This document shows positions 1,045 through 55,380 of a stretch of DNA of 55,380 nucleotides, piece by piece. Origin of the DNA: an uncultured Gammaproteobacteria bacterium (GTDB lineage Bacteria > Patescibacteriota > Microgenomatia > UBA10105 > UBA927); NCBI GenBank assembly GCA_964394685.1, contig CAYMYO010000004.1, positions 9,063 to 64,442 of the forward strand. The letters are read 5' to 3'. The stretch's first letter is position 1; each line of letters starts with the position of its first letter. The notes beneath the pieces are model-generated. The model did no database searches and had not been told where the DNA came from. It saw only the letters and a program-made list of their open reading frames with translations. The position numbers were made by a program, and so were the translations under genes.

Positions 1045-2388
1045 ATGCAAAATCCAAAAGTGCCTCCGCACGATGATAGTGCGGAAGAGTCAGTTCTTGG
1101 CGCCATCCTTATTGATCGGGATGCCATGATTGACGTGGTTGAATTTCTTCGGTCTGAACACTTCTACAAAGAAGCAAATGGTCATGTGTATATGGCCATG
1201 ATGAATTTGTATGAGCGTCATGACCCCATTGATGTTGTAACTGTTGTCAATGAGCTGAAAAAAATTGGATCCTTGACTGAAGCAGGAGGAGCATCGCGAA
1301 TCAATGAACTAGTCAATGTGGTTCCAACAGCAGCCAATGCCGAACAGTACGGACATATCATTAAAGAATACCATACAAAGCGGCTGCTTATTTCAGCAGC
1401 AGCTGAAATTAATACCCTTGCGTTTAAAGAATCGGGAGAGGTGCAGTCCATTCTTGATAGCGCTGAGCAGCGAATTTTTGCCATATCCCAGCATGCGATG
1501 AAACGGGATTTCATTCCCATCAAAGACGCACTCGCTGCGTCATTTGACCGCTTAGATGAGCTCCATAAACGAGCTGGGGGACTTCGGGGAGTTGCCACCG
1601 GTTTTCATGATTTGGATATGAAGCTTGCCGGCATGCAGGATTCAAACCTTATCATCCTCGCTGCCCGTCCGGGAACAGGGAAAACCGCAATGATTCTCAA
1701 TATTGCCCAGTATGTAGCTGTTCACGACAAAGTTCCTGTTGGGATATTTTCTCTTGAAATGAGCAAAGAAGAATTGGTGGATCGGCTTTTGGTTGCGCAA
1801 GCGGATATCGACGCGTGGAAACTGAAAACCGGAAAGCTTTCTGATGATGATTTTACGAAACTTTCTGATGCAATGGGTCAACTTGCCGAGGCGCCTCTTT
1901 TTATTGACGATACGCCGGGACTATCCATTCTAGAGATGCGGACAAAAGCACGAAGATTGCAAATGGAATACGGAGTAAAACTCATGGTCGTTGATTACTT
2001 GCAGCTTGCTGATTCTGGGAGACGGTATGATAATCGTGTTCAGGAAGTGTCTGTTATTTCGCAAAGTTTGAAAAATCTTGCGCGTGAACTTAATGTTCCG
2101 GTTCTTGCCTGTTCACAACTTTCCCGTGCTGTTGAAAGCAGGGGAACCAGAGTGCCGGAATTGTCAGATCTTCGGGAATCAGGGTCCATTGAACAAGATG
2201 CCGATGTCGTTATGTTTCTCTATCGCGAAGAAGCGGATATGACACAGTGGGGCGAACAAATTCCGACAAAACTGCGGATTGCAAAACATAGAAACGGCCC
2301 CTTAGGGGAAATAGACATGGTCTTCCGCGGCGACCGCATTCGTTTTTACGGGGTAGAACACAAGCGTGACGAAACTCCGGCAGGATGA
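1045..2388 (+). CDS. dnaB: Replicative DNA helicase DnaB
   Basis: PPHDDSAEESVLG N-terminus, Walker A AARPGTGKT, VVDYLQL, SQLSR, LRESGSIEQDAD, AKHRNGP. Confidence 0.98.
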   Translation: MQNPKVPPHDDSAEESVLGAILIDRDAMIDVVEFLRSEHFYKEANGHVYMAMMNLYERHDPIDVVTVVNELKKIGSLTEAGGASRINELVNVVPTAANAEQYGHIIKEYHTKRLLISAAAEINTLAFKESGEVQSILDSAEQRIFAISQHAMKRDFIPIKDALAASFDRLDELHKRAGGLRGVATGFHDLDMKLAGMQDSNLIILAARPGTGKTAMILNIAQYVAVHDKVPVGIFSLEMSKEELVDRLLVAQADIDAWKLKTGKLSDDDFTKLSDAMGQLAEAPLFIDDTPGLSILEMRTKARRLQMEYGVKLMVVDYLQLADSGRRYDNRVQEVSVISQSLKNLARELNVPVLACSQLSRAVESRGTRVPELSDLRESGSIEQDADVVMFLYREEADMTQWGEQIPTKLRIAKHRNGPLGEIDMVFRGDRIRFYGVEHKRDETPAG

Positions 2389-2394
2389 TAAAAT
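2386..2394 (+). promoter_or_regulatory. Extended -10 promoter candidate for the nested tRNA locus
   Basis: TGa-TAAAAT ending 9 nt before the outer tRNA 5' end. Confidence 0.5.
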
Positions 2395-2436
2395 CATATC
2401 ATTGCCAGGGTGGTGGAATTGGTATACACGTAGTTC

Positions 2437-2550
2437 CCTGCCCGAAATGCCAAAGTGTTGGAATTGGTAGACAAGCAAGTCTCAAAAACTTGTGGAGATA
2501 ACACTCCGTGAGGGTCCGAGTCCCTCCTTTGGCACATCTTTGCAGGCGGG
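2437..2550 (+). mobile_element. 114-bp insert bounded by CCTGCCCG and GCAGGCGGG, carrying a tRNA-Leu gene
   Basis: Ends identical to those of the 21-bp element at 54813-54833; removal restores the host tRNA with no target duplication; mobility is inferred. Confidence 0.7.
2449..2534 (+). tRNA. Inner (nested) tRNA-Leu(CAA), intact, 86 nt, CCA not encoded
   Basis: Acceptor GCCAAAG/CTTTGGC, D stem TTG/CAA, anticodon stem CAAGT/ACTTG, loop CTCAAAA, variable stem GGAG/CTCC, T stem GAGGG/CCCTC, discriminator A. Confidence 0.93.
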
Positions 2551-2629
2551 TCAAAAAGCTATGACTATAAAAAGTCATGCGGGTCCAAATCCCGCCCCTG
2601 GCACAAAAGACACGTTGTTTATCTTCTAG

Positions 2630-2638
2630 TGCTATAAT
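2630..2638 (+). promoter_or_regulatory. Extended -10 promoter upstream of pepA
   Basis: TGc-TATAAT ending 21 nt before the ATG at 2660. Confidence 0.55.
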
Positions 2639-2659
2639 ACGCTCTAAATTCGCGATAAT

Positions 2660-4093
2660 ATGAAATTTTATACGACGACGAAAGATATAACTTCACTTTC
2701 CGCTGATGCGGTGGTGGTTTTTGTGTATCAGGACGAAAAAGAACCGGAGTATATAAAACAATTTCACGTACAAGAAGAAGGGTTTACTGCTAAATTAGGA
2801 AATATTTTTGTTATTCAGACGCAGGGGAAATTAGCATATAAAAAAATATTTGTTGTGGGACTCGGAAAAGATAAAGAGCTTTCAGCGCATGATTGGCAAT
2901 ATGTTTATGCATCGATCGCAAGACAAGCAAAATTAAGTAAAGTTGCCACCCTCGTTGTTCCAACAAGCGATGTCTATAACGCTGTTGTAGGATTGGGGCT
3001 TGGTTCCTATAGTTTTTTAGTTCATAAAAACAAAAAAGTACAAAAAGAAGAACATGAAATAGAAAAAGTGACATTTGTTGGAGATGCAATAATTCAAAAG
3101 GATATCGTGAGTGGTGTTATTGCAGTTGATGCTACAAATTTTGCAAGGGATTTGGTTAATGAGCCGCCGTCTGTGACAACGCCAACGTATTTAAGTAGAG
3201 TAGCGGAAAAGTTGGCGGGGATATCTGTAAAAGTTTTTGAGAAAAAAGAAATGAAAAAACTCGGCATGAATGGACTTTTGGCTATTGCTCAAGGATCCCA
3301 TGAAGAACCGAAATTTATTAAGCTTACGTATAATGGTGGTGGGAAGAAAACGATAACCCTTGTGGGTAAAGGAATTACGTATGATTCCGGCGGGTTGTCA
3401 TTAAAGCCGCAATCGGGACTGGAAACCATGAAATGCGATATGGCAGGGGCAGCAGCAATTTTGGGAGTGTTTCATGCGCTTCAAAAAACAAAACCAAACA
3501 TAAACGTCATTGGTTTGATTGCCTCATGTGAGAATATGCCGGGAGGGGGAGCGATTAAACCAGGAGATGTCGTGCGTGCCATGAACGGGAAAACAATTGA
3601 AATTGTCAATATTGATGCAGAGGGACGTATTGTTCTTGCTGATGCCTTGTCGTATGCAGAAAAATTCGTGAAATCAGATTTCATTATTGATTTAGCAACG
3701 CTCACTGGCGCTTGTGTGGTTGCGCTTGGAGAAGACATAGCAGGACTGTTTACTGATGATGAGAAACTAGCTGGTAGTTTGATCGGATCAGCAACACATG
3801 TTGGCGAAAAAATGTGGAGAATGCCTATTGCAAAGGAATATGAAGAACAACTGAAAAGTGAAATAGCCGATGTACGGAATGTTTCAAAGACGAAATACGG
3901 CGGAGCAATCAACGGTGCGTTGTTTTTGAAAGAATTTGCTCCGAAAAACTCTCCTTGGGCGCATATCGATATTGCCGGCCCCGCGTTTGCTGAAAAAGAT
4001 ATGACACTCACGCCGTATGGTGGCACAGGATTTGGTGTTCGTACGCTACTTTCATTTATCTTAGAAGCAGCAGAAGGAAAAAGAGGACGGTGA
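2660..4093 (+). CDS. pepA: Leucyl aminopeptidase (M17)
   Basis: GKGITYDSGG, MKCDMAGAA, NIDAEGRIVLAD (NTDAEGR variant), ATLTGA, HIDIAG. Confidence 0.95.
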   Translation: MKFYTTTKDITSLSADAVVVFVYQDEKEPEYIKQFHVQEEGFTAKLGNIFVIQTQGKLAYKKIFVVGLGKDKELSAHDWQYVYASIARQAKLSKVATLVVPTSDVYNAVVGLGLGSYSFLVHKNKKVQKEEHEIEKVTFVGDAIIQKDIVSGVIAVDATNFARDLVNEPPSVTTPTYLSRVAEKLAGISVKVFEKKEMKKLGMNGLLAIAQGSHEEPKFIKLTYNGGGKKTITLVGKGITYDSGGLSLKPQSGLETMKCDMAGAAAILGVFHALQKTKPNINVIGLIASCENMPGGGAIKPGDVVRAMNGKTIEIVNIDAEGRIVLADALSYAEKFVKSDFIIDLATLTGACVVALGEDIAGLFTDDEKLAGSLIGSATHVGEKMWRMPIAKEYEEQLKSEIADVRNVSKTKYGGAINGALFLKEFAPKNSPWAHIDIAGPAFAEKDMTLTPYGGTGFGVRTLLSFILEAAEGKRGR

Positions 4094-35956: not shown

Positions 35957-36375
35957 AAAAAACATGCCTGCCTGCCGGCAGGCAGGCTTTCTCTCTTATC
36001 GAATTACTTGTTGTGATTGCGCTTATTGGTATTTTGGTTGCTATCGCAACGGTTTCCTACACTACTATCCAAAAAAGGTCTCGTGATAGCAGGCGGGTCA
36101 CTGAACTGAAAGCGGTTCAGCAAGCGATGGAACAATATTATTCAAATACGCAATCATCATATCCAGGGAGTTGTTCCGGATTGGGTATCACCTATTTACC
36201 TAATGGTATGCCATCAGATCCTCAGACAGGCGTTCGTTATGATGATGCATCTCTATCGAGTTGTTCCTCAACGTCCTATTGTTTTTGTGTTTCTATGGAG
36301 GTCGGAAGCGGCAATGCGACCACTAATTGTTCAGGAACAGCCGGAGCGTTCTATTGTATTAGAAATGTTCAATGA
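35953..36375 (+). CDS. Type IV pilin / GspG-like
   Basis: A|FSLIELL, RDSRR, YP...PSDP. Confidence 0.88.
   Translation: MKKTCLPAGRQAFSLIELLVVIALIGILVAIATVSYTTIQKRSRDSRRVTELKAVQQAMEQYYSNTQSSYPGSCSGLGITYLPNGMPSDPQTGVRYDDASLSSCSSTSYCFCVSMEVGSGNATTNCSGTAGAFYCIRNVQ
35967..35986. repeat. 20-bp perfect palindrome CCTGCCTGCCGGCAGGCAGG in a prepilin leader
   Basis: Encodes part of CLPAGRQ; identical to 44694-44713. Confidence 0.9.
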
Positions 36376-36388
36376 AGAAAGGAAAAAT

Positions 36389-36829
36389 ATGAAAAAAGCC
36401 ATGCCTGCCGGCAGGCAGGGTTTTACACTTATTGAAATTCTTATCTCAATAGCTATTATTGCGGTATTAACTGCTCTTGGTATTGTTTCCTATGTGAGTA
36501 TTAACAAAAATGCACGTGATGCAAAACGTCGGGGAGATATCGAACAAATTCGATCAGCACTTGAATTGTACAGGTCAGATAATGGGTTTTATCCGGCAGT
36601 GGGTTCACTTGGTTGGGTTGATGTAAGTGAATTATCCATAGCTTTGGTTGATACCTATTTTCCTAGTATCCCATCAGATCCACAAAATACGTCATATCGG
36701 TATAAAGGAACGAACGACTATTACGGATATTGTTTGGAAGCGAAAGTCGAAAATGCAGATATAGCTGCTGATACATGCGGATCAATTGAAACAGGTGAGG
36801 GTTATAATTATGGAACGAAGAACCCGTAA
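36389..36829 (+). CDS. GspG-like type IV pilin
   Basis: Start moved to ATG 36389 after GAAAGGA; G|FTLIEIL, RDAKRRGDI...ALELYRSDNG.YP, PSDP. Confidence 0.88.
   Translation: MKKAMPAGRQGFTLIEILISIAIIAVLTALGIVSYVSINKNARDAKRRGDIEQIRSALELYRSDNGFYPAVGSLGWVDVSELSIALVDTYFPSIPSDPQNTSYRYKGTNDYYGYCLEAKVENADIAADTCGSIETGEGYNYGTKNP
36399..36419. repeat. 21-bp mini-palindrome CCATGCCTGCCGGCAGGCAGG in a prepilin leader
   Basis: Removal gives MKKG|FTL; identical to 37758-37778. Confidence 0.9.
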
Positions 36830-37747: not shown

Positions 37748-38347
37748 ATGAAAAGAGCCATGCCTGCCGGCAGGCAGGGTTTTACACTACTTGAGTTACT
37801 TGTCGCTTCAGGTGTTATTGCGTTTGTTTCCGTTATTATTACGCAAGTTCTTTTTTCAAGTATCCACTTAAACACAAAAACTGAGGTTATAAAGGAATTA
37901 AAACAAACGGGAGAAATGACGTTGGGGGCAATGAGTCGAATGATTCAAAACGCTGCTTCTGTAATGGTTTCTCAATGTAATCTAAGCACTGATGATCCCA
38001 AGCAAATAGTGCCAACTGTTGAAATTACAGCGTTAAACGGCGGAATTACCACTATTGAATGCATCGATGATGCTATAGCTGGTGTTACCAGAATTGCTTC
38101 GATGAGTGCCTCACGAATTGATCCGTTATATATAACCAATAGTAATGTTACGTTGATAGATAATACTGGTGCTAGCGGTTGTTCGAATCAACCATTGCAA
38201 TTTACGTGCGTTGGTGTTGGAGGAATACCAACCTCCCTTAGTGTACGATTTCGTCTTCGTCAAAAAAATCTTGCAGCAACATCGTATGAAAGCGCGTTTG
38301 AAACATTTCAAACAACAATTAGTGTTCGAAATTCCACAAATGAATAA
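37748..38347 (+). CDS. Minor pilin (PilW-like)
   Basis: G|FTLLELL; C-terminal FETFQTTISVRN. Confidence 0.82.
   Translation: MKRAMPAGRQGFTLLELLVASGVIAFVSVIITQVLFSSIHLNTKTEVIKELKQTGEMTLGAMSRMIQNAASVMVSQCNLSTDDPKQIVPTVEITALNGGITTIECIDDAIAGVTRIASMSASRIDPLYITNSNVTLIDNTGASGCSNQPLQFTCVGVGGIPTSLSVRFRLRQKNLAATSYESAFETFQTTISVRNSTNE
37758..37778. repeat. 21-bp mini-palindrome in a prepilin leader
   Basis: Removal gives MKRG|FTL. Confidence 0.9.
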
Positions 38348-44049: not shown

Positions 44050-46113
44050 TTAATCCTGTGAAACATTTTCTATTTTACTCTCATTTAAGCGCTCTCTCAA
44101 GAGGGGAAAAGCATTAAACGTAGGATCAATGCATGTTAACTTCGAAACTGCGTCTTTTGTTTGAGAAACAAGAGTGGCATCTGATAACGATCCAAGAACA
44201 AGTGTCGGGATTCCGTGTTGGCGGCTGCCAAAGACATCTCCCTGACCTCGAAGTTTGAGATCATATTCAGCAAGTTCTGTACCGTTATGCATTGTTTCCA
44301 GAGCTTTTAAACGCGTCATTGTATCCGGATTGGTATTATCTGAAAAGAGAAGACAATAGGATTGTTTGTCACTGCGTCCTACCCGTCCGCGGAGCTGATG
44401 AAGTTGCGCAAGGCCAAACCGATCAGAGCCTTCAACGAGCATAATGGTAGCATTGGGAATATCAATTCCTACTTCAACAACAGGAGTCGCCACTAATATA
44501 TCAATGTCTTTATTTCGAAATGCATCAAGAATACTCGATTTTTCTTTTGTTTTTAGTTTGCCATGCAGAAGTCCGAGTTTGAGATTTGGAAAGACAGAGG
44601 TAGATAATCTCGTAAATTCAGTCGTGGCGGCTTTGATGGTTTTCATGGATTCCGATTCCTCGATAAACGGACAAATAATAAAACACTGTGAACCCTGCCT
44701 GCCGGCAGGCAGGTGTGACTCTTTTATTTCTTTTTTTATCCATGCGTAGGCATCATCACGTTTTTCTGGGGGAACCACCCAGGTTTTAATGTTTTGTCTT
44801 CCTTTAGGCATTTCAGTGAGTTGAGACAGGTCGAGATTGCCGTAGAGCGTAAGAGCAAGGGTTCTGGGGATCGGAGTAGCGGTCATGGTAAGGAGATGTG
44901 GTGTGGTTGTCCCCTTCACTTTTGTGCGAATCAGGTTTCGTTGAAATACGCCAAATCGTTGTTGTTCATCAATAACGACAAGTCCGACGTTTTGAAATTC
45001 AATTTTGTTTTCTAATAACGCATGCGTGCCGACGAGTATTTTGTATTTTGTATCTTGTCTTTTGTATTTACCTCCAGTGATCAGGCCGACACTAATGCCA
45101 AACGGTTCGAGGAGTTGTTTAATGGTATTGAAATGTTGTTCAGCAAGGATTTGGGTCGGTGCCATGAGGATGGACTGGAGATGATTTTTTGCAGTAATAT
45201 ACATGGCTATTGCCGCAACCACGGTTTTTCCGCTCCCGACATCTCCCTCAAGAAGCCGATTCATAGGAGTTGTTGATGCAATATCCGTTTGAATATCTTT
45301 AAACGCTTGCAATTGACTACTCGTGAGAGTAAATGGAAGTTTTGTGATAAATGAATTTATTTCTTGAGAAGAAGTAGTGAGTGAGGTCGCATGCTTTGTT
45401 TCTTTCCACAATCGTTTTTGCTCAAAGGACATACATTGCATAAGAAGCAGTTCGTCAAACGCGAGCCTTCGCCTGGCTTCAACTCCAATTGCAATTGTTT
45501 TTGGAAAATGCACATCATGAAGTGCTTCCTGAATGTGCGGGAGCGTATATGTTATCCGTATGTTCTCGGGTATGTATTCTTCAATGAGCGTTGGTACTTC
45601 GGTTAACAGATAATAGATTCGTGATCGTAACCATTTTGACGTAATACCGGTTGTTTCTGAATAGACTGGAACCACTCGACCAGTGTGAAGGAATGGTTTG
45701 CCAGGAGTTGCAAGTTCATAATCCGGAGATTCTAACACGAGTTTGTTTCCGAAAAAACCAACGGTTCCTGAAGCAGCGAGTATATCGCCTGCCTGGATGA
45801 TTTTCGGTAAATACAATTGGTTAAACCATATAATTGTCGCAATTCCTGTAGAATCCTCGACACGACATTCCTGAATTTTCTTTCCTGTTTTGGTAAAGAT
45901 GTTTTTGATACTTAATACCGTCCCATGGATACTGATGACCGTCCCTGGATGCAGTGATCGAATGGAAGTAACGAGCGAAAAATCGTTGTAGCGGAAAGGG
46001 GCGTAAAAAAGAAGATCCCGTACCGTATGAATTCCGAGTCGTTCCAACTTACCAGCGATCGATGGACCCACACGGGGGACGTATTGAATAGAAGAGCTCA
46101 GTCGTAAGGTCAT
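44050..46113 (-). CDS. recG: ATP-dependent DNA helicase RecG
   Basis: RRRLAFDE, EGDVGSGKT, DEQQRFG, MTATPIPRT, QLHQLRGRVGR, DLKLRGQG. Confidence 0.96.
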   Translation of the reverse strand: MTLRLSSSIQYVPRVGPSIAGKLERLGIHTVRDLLFYAPFRYNDFSLVTSIRSLHPGTVISIHGTVLSIKNIFTKTGKKIQECRVEDSTGIATIIWFNQLYLPKIIQAGDILAASGTVGFFGNKLVLESPDYELATPGKPFLHTGRVVPVYSETTGITSKWLRSRIYYLLTEVPTLIEEYIPENIRITYTLPHIQEALHDVHFPKTIAIGVEARRRLAFDELLLMQCMSFEQKRLWKETKHATSLTTSSQEINSFITKLPFTLTSSQLQAFKDIQTDIASTTPMNRLLEGDVGSGKTVVAAIAMYITAKNHLQSILMAPTQILAEQHFNTIKQLLEPFGISVGLITGGKYKRQDTKYKILVGTHALLENKIEFQNVGLVVIDEQQRFGVFQRNLIRTKVKGTTTPHLLTMTATPIPRTLALTLYGNLDLSQLTEMPKGRQNIKTWVVPPEKRDDAYAWIKKEIKESHLPAGRQGSQCFIICPFIEESESMKTIKAATTEFTRLSTSVFPNLKLGLLHGKLKTKEKSSILDAFRNKDIDILVATPVVEVGIDIPNATIMLVEGSDRFGLAQLHQLRGRVGRSDKQSYCLLFSDNTNPDTMTRLKALETMHNGTELAEYDLKLRGQGDVFGSRQHGIPTLVLGSLSDATLVSQTKDAVSKLTCIDPTFNAFPLLRERLNESKIENVSQD
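44694..44713. repeat. 20-bp palindrome CCTGCCTGCCGGCAGGCAGG inside recG
   Basis: Encodes part of HLPAGRQG, just before the SQCFIICP strand. Confidence 0.9.
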
Positions 46114-54597: not shown

Positions 54598-55380
54598 TTA
54601 GAATTGTTTTAAAAATCGTACATCATTACTATAAAGCAACCGAATATCATCAATATTTGTATTGGATTTCATCATGGATGTCCGTTCCACTCCCCAACCA
54701 ATAGCAAATCCGCTGTATTTACTTGGATCAACGCCGCCATTTTGAAGTACGACCGGATGGATCATGCCGGAACCGGCAAGTTCGAGCCATCCTTCTTTAC
54801 ACAAACGGCAACCCTGCCCGTCCGGCAGGCGGGCCTTACCACCGCACACGCCACAGGAGATATCTACCTCAAATGATGGTTCAGTAAATTGAAAATGAAA
54901 TGGTCGTAGACGGAATTTTCTTTCGGATCCAAAGTATTGTTTGACAAAATAATCAATAAACCCTTTAAGGTGGCCGATTGAGACATTACGGTCGATATAC
55001 ATTCCTTCAAATTGATGAAACATTGGTGTATGCGATATATCGATTTGTCTTCGGTAGCATTTAGCAATGTTTATCATGCGTATTGGCAGCATTCCTTTTT
55101 CCATTTCCCGTACTTGTCCGTTACTTGTATGTGGGGTTAATACGATTTTTTGTTTTTTATAATCGCTTTCTGGTTGTCCAGGATATTTGATGTAGAATGT
55201 CTCCCATTCGTCGCTTGCTGGATGACTGTGCGGCATATTGAGTGATTCAAACGGATACCAATCCCAATCAACTTCCGGATGTCGAACACGGGTAAAACCT
55301 ATTTTATTGAATATGGTTGTTATTTCTTCAATTGCTTGGGTGACAATATGAAGATGTCCTTGCGGAGGAAGATCTCCGGG
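54598..55380 (-). CDS. pheS: Phenylalanyl-tRNA synthetase alpha subunit (5' part outside window)
   Basis: Frame open to the window edge (GHLHIVT...LNMPHSHPA); HTPMFHQFEG, FQFTEPS, ELAGSG, FAIGWGVER. Confidence 0.96.
   Translation of the reverse strand, partial: PGDLPPQGHLHIVTQAIEEITTIFNKIGFTRVRHPEVDWDWYPFESLNMPHSHPASDEWETFYIKYPGQPESDYKKQKIVLTPHTSNGQVREMEKGMLPIRMINIAKCYRRQIDISHTPMFHQFEGMYIDRNVSIGHLKGFIDYFVKQYFGSERKFRLRPFHFQFTEPSFEVDISCGVCGGKARLPDGQGCRLCKEGWLELAGSGMIHPVVLQNGGVDPSKYSGFAIGWGVERTSMMKSNTNIDDIRLLYSNDVRFLKQF
54813..54833. repeat. 21-bp mini-palindrome CCTGCCCGTCCGGCAGGCGGG inserted in frame in pheS
   Basis: Removal converts CGGKARLPDGQGCRLC into the usual CGGKGCRLC. Confidence 0.9.

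Follow-up and report, generated by a model that had tools for sequence, protein, structure and literature searches.

Two genes for tRNA-Leu(CAA), one inside the other, lie 3' of a dnaB-like replicative helicase gene in a 55,380-nucleotide stretch of contig CAYMYO010000004.1 that is referred to here as the window. Judged from the relatives of its DnaB, the host is a Candidatus Gottesmanbacteria, a member of the Microgenomates in the candidate phyla radiation (CPR), with a genome of about 1.0 Mb and an estimated completeness of 100%. The inner gene, also called the cargo, is flanked by short arms, and together they form a 114-nt cassette, of which 86 nt are tRNA and which holds no open reading frame (ORF). 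The cassette separates the two halves of the outer gene between loop nucleotides 32 and 33 (C|UCAAAA), at a position that is unambiguous and cannot be shifted (Table 1). Removal of exactly positions 2437-2550 restores an 86-nt tRNA-Leu(CAA), as called by ARAGORN, with no mismatched stem pair, with G18G19, U33 and A73, and with a long variable arm. In a spliced RNA, the junction of the outer exons would read GUAGUUC|UCAAAAAGCUA.

The inner gene is found by both ARAGORN and Rfam, with ends at 2449-2534/5 and with a score of 51.3 bits against an Rfam threshold of 29 bits. Its cloverleaf has a long variable arm, G18G19, U33, the anticodon CAA and A73, and every stem is paired. It has the sequence features of a functional tRNA-Leu and is predicted to work as one, and it is the sole Leu(CAA) gene in the genome that standard tools detect (ARAGORN and a whole-genome Rfam tRNA search). 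The two genes have equal arm lengths and are identical at 62 of 87 positions (71%), and the differences, which fall in the acceptor, D, anticodon, variable and T stems, are all compensated. In the minimum-free-energy fold, the outer acceptor strands are paired and the inner acceptor helix is kept. Of 395 comparable deletions made in silico throughout the genome, the one in the window alone gave a new full tRNA that encloses an independent intact tRNA; therefore, the nested layout is not a product of chance. The nesting is thus confirmed. The original prediction, made from the sequence letters alone, had described a complete tRNA-Leu(CAA) at 2449-2534, a second tRNA-Leu that is restored by the deletion and has no broken stem, and an inner gene that is not a local duplicate. 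Each of these points is upheld, by ARAGORN and Rfam for the inner gene, by ARAGORN on the spliced as well as the native sequence, in both of which tRNA-Leu(CAA) is called, by the pairing of all outer stems, and by the 71% identity with compensated differences. A check for another tRNA-Leu(CAA) gene likewise gave none besides the inner one.

A single promoter-like site was detected in the region, 9 nt 5' of the outer tRNA, and the promoter scan returned none within the cassette. The identical gatgataaaatca box precedes the uninterrupted tRNA in two relatives (L021 and L003), and the 3' flank of the outer gene can be aligned with the flank of the relatives' uninterrupted tRNA. The two arms pair at nine of 12 terminal positions, one G-U pair included, as judged from sequence and fold, and the terminus of the 5' arm is shared with a cargo-less copy elsewhere in this genome (C11:23413, CCTGCCCGAAATGC...).

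Table 1. Features of the nested tRNA-Leu(CAA) locus, with one cargo-less copy elsewhere in the window
Feature	Position in window	Strand	Basis or remark
dnaB-like replicative helicase gene	1045..2388	+	ORF list; conserved left neighbour
Promoter-like site: GTGACG, 17-nt spacer, TG-extended TAAAAT	2366..2394	+	Promoter scan
Outer tRNA-Leu(CAA), 5' part: acceptor 5' strand, D arm, anticodon stem 5' strand, loop nt 32	2404..2436	+	In-silico deletion and ARAGORN
Cassette 5' arm, CCTGCCCGAAAT	2437..2448	+	Terminus same as that of this genome's minis
Inner (cargo) tRNA-Leu(CAA), intact	2449..2534	+	ARAGORN and Rfam, 51.3 bits
Cassette trailer and 3' arm, CATCTTTGCAGGCGGG	2535..2550	+	Same terminus as minis
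Outer tRNA-Leu(CAA), 3' part: loop nt 33-38, anticodon stem 3' strand, variable arm, T arm, acceptor 3' strand, A73	2551..2603	+	In-silico deletion and ARAGORN
21-nt cargo-less mini, CCTGCCCGTCCGGCAGGCGGG	54813..54833		In frame (7 codons) in pheS-like minus-strand ORF; pattern search and translation

Nesting of this kind recurs across the class. When 401 genomes of the Microgenomates class were searched for the ends of the cassette at a spacing of 80-110 nt, 67 places were recovered, distributed over 48 genomes and 44 of 294 genera; the control recovered none. An intact tRNA gene is present at 60 of the 67 places, with 24 anticodons represented, in cassettes of 102-119 nt that leave 12-27 nt on either side of the tRNA. 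A 45x45 flank-deletion scan with ARAGORN gave mostly noise, as odd variable regions are tolerated, and was replaced by deletion at the exact arms combined with a stem-loop test that requires at least four of five pairs in the anticodon stem. By this test, the joined flanks of 49 of the 60 cassettes rebuild an anticodon stem-loop with the cargo's anticodon on the sense strand, and the antisense control gave one. ARAGORN adds one cognate case (L185), such that at least 50 of 60 cassettes lie co-oriented within tRNA halves of the same anticodon. The outer gene is still recognized by ARAGORN in 34 of 60 cases, with an identical anticodon in 32 of these; the other two have bodies of the Val type and damaged loops. 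None of the 60 cassettes was found in a non-cognate tRNA gene, and none at a site outside tRNA genes. In short, nesting within the cognate tRNA gene is the general rule in this bacterial class.

The insertion sites lie in the anticodon loop, where they range from 32|33 to 37|38 and are fixed for each tRNA type, at the 3' end of the D loop (GGTAGA|) and, once, in the T loop. The asymmetric arms face either way relative to the cargo in equal numbers (30:30); cargo and outer gene, by contrast, invariably share one orientation. Each of the 60 inner copies is intact. The outer copies are unrecognizable in 26 of 60 cases and are often truncated, mutated or hit by further cargo-less insertions, and some of those still recognized have lesions at universally conserved positions of the D or T loop. 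In the 14 pairs for which it can be measured, the identity between inner and outer gene is 60-82%; because the two always diverge, the cargo is foreign rather than a local copy. Assemblies produced independently in other studies show the nested layout as well. No published description was found of bacterial tRNA genes nested within other tRNA genes, and a paper on rRNA insertions in CPR bacteria makes no mention of tRNA. The cassettes are a widespread and apparently undescribed class of tRNA-replacement elements.

The cassette consists of a tRNA gene between GC-rich quasi-palindromic arms that end in CCTGCCCG...GCAGGCGGG; the 9-nt termini, CCTGCCCGC and GCAGGCGGG, are an imperfect inverted repeat in which one position is G-U and another C-A. 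These termini also bound cargo-less elements of 21-49 nt, here called minis. This genome holds nine minis by the strict pattern, one of them nested in another mini, and at least one mini is present in 34 of 61 related genomes, with none found by the reversed-pattern control. The common 36-mer mini can form two overlapping hairpins (positions 7-14/18-25 and 13-19/23-29), both with compensatory changes between copies; therefore, the same shape of end, hairpin and tail is available to each DNA strand. In the cassettes, the tRNA occupies the place of the hairpin tip of the mini.

Minis also insert within coding sequence. All nine that lie within ORFs of this genome are 21, 36 or 72 nt long and are read through (e.g. 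PARNASQSDAGG), and the copies of 38 and 40 nt are intergenic. The mini at 54813-54833 is placed between the Cys pairs of a zinc-ribbon-like motif. A rule by which insertion takes place in hairpin loops only holds for tRNA genes and for one mini within a mini, fails for the ORF copies, and was rejected. The bases 5' of the element are variable, and include GTTC, TAGC, TTTG, TAGA, ACTT, TGAA, CAAC and others. The target is not duplicated, in that exact deletion restores a tRNA without any duplicated base, both here and in 34 other cases; one 12-nt palindrome, in the outer tRNA-Thr gene described below, has a TAGA repeat.

Other hairpins were noted as well. A perfect palindrome, CCTGCC(TGCC)GGCAGG(CAGG), stands at window positions 35967-35986, 36404-36419, 37763-37778 and 44694-44713. 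Three of these copies lie in type-IV-pilin-like ORFs, where they encode PAGRQ(G/A)F within the leader, directly before the G|F cleavage motif, and the fourth lies elsewhere. A second hairpin family, TCC(C)GCC-N-GGCGGA, is found within tRNA genes of relatives (L035, L002/L046, L013 and L039), and in L035 it apparently serves as the variable arm of the sole tRNA-Leu(CAA).

A second nested case in this genome lies outside the window, where an intact tRNA-Thr(UGU) gene in a 106-nt cassette sits at 35|36 of another tRNA-Thr(UGU) gene (G000:C11:36930-37190, minus strand). The outer gene also carries three cargo-less inserts, two in the D loop and one in the variable loop, such that its inserts are one of 36 nt, one of 12 nt with the TAGA repeat, the 106-nt cassette and one of 20 nt. 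With the four inserts removed, it folds perfectly and is 95-96% identical to uninterrupted Thr(UGU) genes in five of six same-genus genomes, with the gene cut by a contig end in the sixth, and in several other genera. Therefore, the outer Thr gene is a vertically inherited resident, and the inner Thr gene is foreign. A tRNA-His gene 1.6 kb 5' of the window (C4:7369-7440, minus strand, 36 bits) is interrupted in the T arm by a 19-nt GC palindrome, and an intact second tRNA-His gene is present at C7:42683-42754. An intact copy thus exists for all three interrupted tRNAs of this genome (Leu-CAA, Thr-UGU and His). In a complete genome of the same genus with 48 tRNAs (G006), minis are found only outside tRNA genes or in dead 5' fragments beside a live copy. 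Single-deletion and orphan T-arm scans of the window's genome revealed no further hidden interrupted tRNAs, only a Gly-like remnant and a 3' domain, and the whole-genome Rfam tRNA search added no further interrupted tRNA.

Several partial or duplicated tRNA genes were noted as well. Dead 5' fragments of tRNA-Tyr and tRNA-Leu(UAG) in G006 (C1:147040-147260 and 364937-365110; L202 and L213), each with a mini in the D arm, stand 30-50 nt 5' of an intact copy of the same allele, a recurrent layout of broken plus live gene in which the copy is local. At another locus (L152; G041:C15, about 1347-1580), the 5' half of a tRNA-Thr(UGU) gene (nt 1-35) is duplicated 116 nt 5' of the full gene, and the spacer is AT-rich and lacks GC arms. 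In the window's genome, a truncated tRNA-Gly-like remnant directly follows tRNA-Gly(CCC) (C9:10330-10410, minus strand), and a lone tRNA-like 3' domain of 16 bits (C13:10448-10515, minus strand) may be the end of a transfer-messenger RNA (tmRNA); ARAGORN detected no tmRNA in the genome. A tandem pair of tRNA-Leu(CAG) genes at C7:31302-31513, one of 52.3 bits and the other a weak 29.5 bits, may be another replaced copy.

The dnaB gene was used as an anchor to find orthologous tRNA-Leu loci in relatives, whose DnaB proteins are 62-96% identical and which are labelled Candidatus Gottesmanbacteria or Microgenomates. At 35 related loci, a co-oriented tRNA-Leu(CAA) gene lies 3' of dnaB; most are plain, and ten are invaded, with a decaying outer gene. 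The outer 5' half is deleted in L039, L052 and L055, the outer gene has a 12-nt deletion in L029 and stem mutations plus an extra hairpin in L046, and its 3' side is gone in L060. Empty and filled alleles can be paired. The 5' flank is identical between L028 (empty) and L029 (filled), with 3' halves identical at 49 of 53 positions, and the 3' halves of L043 (empty) and L055 (filled) are identical at 53 of 53.

Cargo alleles at these loci form types of their own (GTGCTGAAATTGGTATACAGG, GTGTTGGAATTGGTAGACAAG), apart from the resident type GTGGCGGAATTGGTAGACGCG, and cluster by type across hosts. The outer anticodon stems at the shared 32|33 site vary among genomes (AGTT/AGCT, AGGT/ACCT, AGCT/AGCT) and match the local allele up to the junction, which argues against simple transfer of the whole locus. 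One cargo allele occupies the 32|33 site in L055 and L039 and the D-loop site in L060. In L159 (G349:C118), the outer halves around a Leu(CAA) cassette at 32|33 are mismatched in the acceptor and anticodon stems; this outer gene is thus a chimera of two alleles, which implies recombination at nested loci.

Taken together, these data suggest that a DNA insertion, by a member of the widespread Microgenomates cassette family, probably broke the resident tRNA-Leu(CAA) gene and supplied its replacement. The 114-nt cassette would have inserted precisely between nucleotides 32 and 33 of the resident gene 3' of dnaB, without duplication of the target, and would have inactivated that gene. A single transcript from the promoter-like site at 2366-2394, starting just before the outer 5' half, would cover the 200-nt unit, in which the outer halves and the arms would serve as an extended leader and trailer. 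The inner tRNA would then be freed by the usual end-processing of tRNAs (RNase P, 3' trimming, CCA addition), such that the destroyed function is replaced. The outer halves would here be an undecayed pseudogene, still perfect because the insertion is presumably recent. A promoterless cargo would survive only in the sense direction within a transcribed gene, and a host would survive the loss of a tRNA gene only with a replacement from the cargo; together, these two conditions account for co-orientation and for part of the cognate rule. The anatomy of the locus, the element family, the cognate rule, the decay of outer copies, the empty alleles and the frame-keeping of minis are shown directly, and we infer that the outer promoter drives expression, that the outer gene is inactive and that the cassette moves as DNA. 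Of the two explanations offered in the original prediction, a recent compensating insertion that carries the same isoacceptor is the one supported by the comparative evidence. The prediction had recognized neither the large palindromic family to which the insert belongs nor the cognate rule.

The other explanation was a precursor that is processed and re-ligated into two tRNAs. The insert would then be a new, protein-dependent bacterial tRNA intron, and one precursor would yield both products once RNase P and 3' processing had freed the inner tRNA, the arms had been trimmed away and the two outer halves had been joined by ligation. Such an intron would account for the perfect tRNA that exact removal gives here and in 34 of 60 other cases, for the arm helix that juxtaposes the exon ends, for exons that can stay intact in outer genes with up to four inserts, and for insert sites that are always tRNA loops. 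It is nevertheless quite improbable. Two-tRNA splicing is left unsupported by the absence of its enzymes, given that PF01974 (EndA) and PF01139 (RtcB) have no match in the genome and the positive controls matched, by the ORF minis of the same family, which keep frame and are translated, by the decay of outer genes, many of them truncated, beyond recognition in 26 of 60 cases, and by the intact backup that every interrupted tRNA has both in this genome and in the complete genome G006. The arms also occur in both orientations relative to the transcript (30:30). An archaeal bulge-helix-bulge (BHB) intron, for which two 3-nt bulges and a 4-bp helix were sought, was rejected, as neither register of the central helix pairs at the junctions. 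The intron 5' tetramers CCTG, CTGC, TGCC and GCCC do not pair with TCAA, CAAA or AAAA of exon 2, and the exon-1 tetramers GTTC, AGTT, TAGT and GTAG do not pair with CGGG, GCGG, GGCG or AGGC at the intron 3' end. Group I and group II introns were also rejected, given an insert of 114 nt where a ribozyme core and about 200 nt or more would be expected, and given that an Rfam scan of 2000-3000 at E<=1 returned tRNA only and no intron. The original prediction had likewise seen neither a BHB nor a ribozyme intron, and the junction pairing and the Rfam scan bear this out.

The remaining rivals concern how the inner gene came to lie where it does. The whole nested unit may have arrived by homologous replacement from an unsampled relative, such that the outer gene was never the working gene of this lineage and cassettes spread by recombination only, not by transposition. 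This is unlikely, and it concerns the route of arrival alone, since a dead outer gene and a working inner one are common to it and to the insertion model. It would explain why the outer allele differs from the tRNA of the nearest relatives in spite of matching flanks, why L159 has outer halves from different alleles, as recombination at nested loci would give, and why each tRNA type uses a fixed site; however, the match of outer anticodon stems at 32|33 to the local allele up to the junction, the occurrence of the L055 and L039 cargo allele at the D-loop site of L060, and the clearly vertical descent of the outer Thr gene in this genome all argue against it. Local duplication of a tRNA into a hairpin already present in its own anticodon loop, followed by divergence, is very unlikely. 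The dead 5' fragments just 5' of an intact same-allele copy in G006 and L152, and the acceptor sequence GCCGCAG shared by the outer fragment and inner gene of L057, are in keeping with it, but inner and outer genes are 60-82% identical in the 14 measurable pairs (71% here), their differences are compensated in every stem where outer genes elsewhere decay rather than co-evolve, and cargo alleles cluster by type across hosts. Duplication in situ as the origin was rejected on account of this constant divergence. A chimera of two tRNA-Leu alleles from a mixed population, assembled in error, is conceivable for a metagenome-assembled genome and yet hardly credible, as the same architecture and arm termini are found in dozens of independent assemblies from different projects, with 24 anticodons, and as neither conserved palindromic arms nor an exact loop junction would be expected from a chimera.

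Several observations weigh against the favoured insertion model. The closest relative, L021, with a DnaB that is 96% identical, has matching flanks, and its plain tRNA is unlike both the inner and the outer gene. Empty alleles are present in relatives for other filled genes (L029, L055 and the outer Thr gene). For the window's outer gene, whose empty allele the original prediction had proposed to seek in related genomes, no near-identical uninterrupted allele was found, the best in 81 genomes of the family being 83% identical. The exact empty allele was not found in metagenome contigs either, where a shorter pattern yielded only a tRNA identical at 64 of 86 positions. The window's outer gene is itself free of any defect, and the arms join the exon ends in a helix, as in an intron. 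Dead outer genes may hold several extra minis and yet keep intact exons, which requires a very high rate of insertion into tRNA-gene loops. No mobilizing enzyme was identified, and the copy number of Y1_Tnp/RAYT genes does not track that of minis. Finally, selection alone poorly explains the lack of any cassette at neutral sites outside tRNA genes, where most minis sit. It is therefore likely either that the choice of target depends to some extent on the cargo or that cassettes spread mostly through recombination of nested with plain alleles.

The RAYT-like Y1 transposase of this genome (204 aa, C12:5000-5344, minus strand) is flanked by a different hairpin family, CTTCAAGGCCGGGCCTTGAAG, which also occurs in frame inside it. 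Homologues of Y1_Tnp/RAYT are present in 50 of 61 genomes, and their copy number does not correlate with that of minis (Spearman rho 0.11, p 0.42); five genomes have minis yet no Y1_Tnp, and G006 has seven minis and no Y1_Tnp. A RAYT/Y1 transposase was rejected as the mobilizer, given the lack of linkage, the lack of correlation and the different partner hairpin. No parent autonomous insertion sequence (IS) with the same ends was noticed beside any copy, although no systematic search was made. A tentative proposal, which we consider possible rather than probable, is that the cassettes are a self-propagating system for the replacement of tRNA genes, in which homology between the cargo and the resident gene guides the loop-directed insertion of a stem-closed, single-stranded DNA module.

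Known systems share some of these features. Miniature inverted-repeat transposable elements (MITEs) and mobile insertion cassettes (MICs) are non-autonomous, have inverted ends and in some cases carry passenger genes. Like them, the tRNA cassettes are tiny, lack a transposase of their own, have imperfect inverted terminal repeats and many dispersed copies with and without a passenger, and nest in one another. Unlike them, the cassettes do not duplicate the target site, they carry as passenger a tRNA gene that occupies precisely the tip of the hairpin, and they are found only within the cognate tRNA gene; in addition, a parent IS with the same ends was not noticed beside cassette copies, in inspection that was not systematic. 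Integron cassettes differ in that the tRNA cassettes lie in tRNA loops and are not arrayed beside an integrase.

Elements of the pNOB8/SSV type and genomic islands rebuild their tRNA target with a partial tRNA copy of their own. The cassettes resemble them in that the target is a tRNA gene, the function is kept by incoming tRNA sequence and displaced tRNA fragments remain. However, the known integrative elements are kilobases long, encode an integrase and duplicate only the identical part beyond the crossover, whereas the cassette is 114 nt long and carries a complete, divergent tRNA, with the old gene halved around it. A tRNA-targeting integrative element that rebuilds its target has been described for a tRNA-Thr gene of Caldiarchaeum (PMC3293823). 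The cassette has no ORF, and hence no integrase, and in place of identical att repeats it has a tRNA that is 71% identical.

Small GC-rich palindromic mobile elements include the GC clusters of yeast mitochondria (PMC4478555) and the double-hairpin or repetitive hairpin elements (PMC2800124). As with the cassette family, these are GC-rich hairpins in AT-rich genomes, with intergenic as well as in-frame genic insertion and with overlapping alternative hairpins. Rickettsia palindromic elements are likewise small palindromic mobile elements of reduced genomes. To our knowledge, none of the GC clusters, hairpin elements or Rickettsia elements carries a gene or sits systematically in tRNA genes with a replacement copy.

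Group I introns occur in the anticodon loops of bacterial tRNA genes, and the cassette resembles them as an intervening sequence at this position whose exact removal restores the tRNA; it differs in that it lacks a ribozyme core, is 114 nt long and is itself a tRNA gene. Archaeal BHB introns, for which transposed introns at non-canonical sites are reportedly known, are short, depend on proteins, occupy many positions and have conserved sequences that recur in different tRNAs, all of which recalls the cassettes, but the cassette junctions form no BHB, the genome has no EndA or RtcB, and the host is bacterial. Repetitive extragenic palindromic (REP) sequences and bacterial interspersed mosaic elements (BIMEs) are mobilized by RAYT (Y1 HUH) transposases. 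The likeness lies in short, dispersed hairpin repeats and in the Y1_Tnp homologues that are common in these genomes; the RAYT-like gene here is flanked by a hairpin other than that of the cassettes, and the copy numbers of Y1_Tnp and minis are not correlated. Nor is there a conserved 4-5-nt target 5' of the left end, as is characteristic of IS200/IS605 palindromes.

Few genes are regarded as more stable, or as more strictly vertical in their inheritance, than those for tRNAs. In an entire bacterial class, tiny cassettes are here seen to interrupt them and to put a foreign gene for the same tRNA in their place. If the insertion model is correct, the cassettes would be a previously unseen kind of element, selfish or serving replacement, and might reflect a new chemistry of DNA insertion that acts on hairpin or tRNA loops. 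They would be a natural example of an element that neutralizes the damage of its own insertion, would explain the sharp differences between the tRNA alleles of close CPR relatives, and would imply that outer genes are missed or mislabelled by standard annotation. Many natural pairs of filled and empty alleles would also be at hand for finding the responsible enzyme. Should insertion be guided by the cargo, which would be passenger-guided DNA insertion without described precedent, each cassette would home to its cognate tRNA gene on entering a new host, and horizontal transfer would keep tRNA alleles in constant turnover throughout the Microgenomates.

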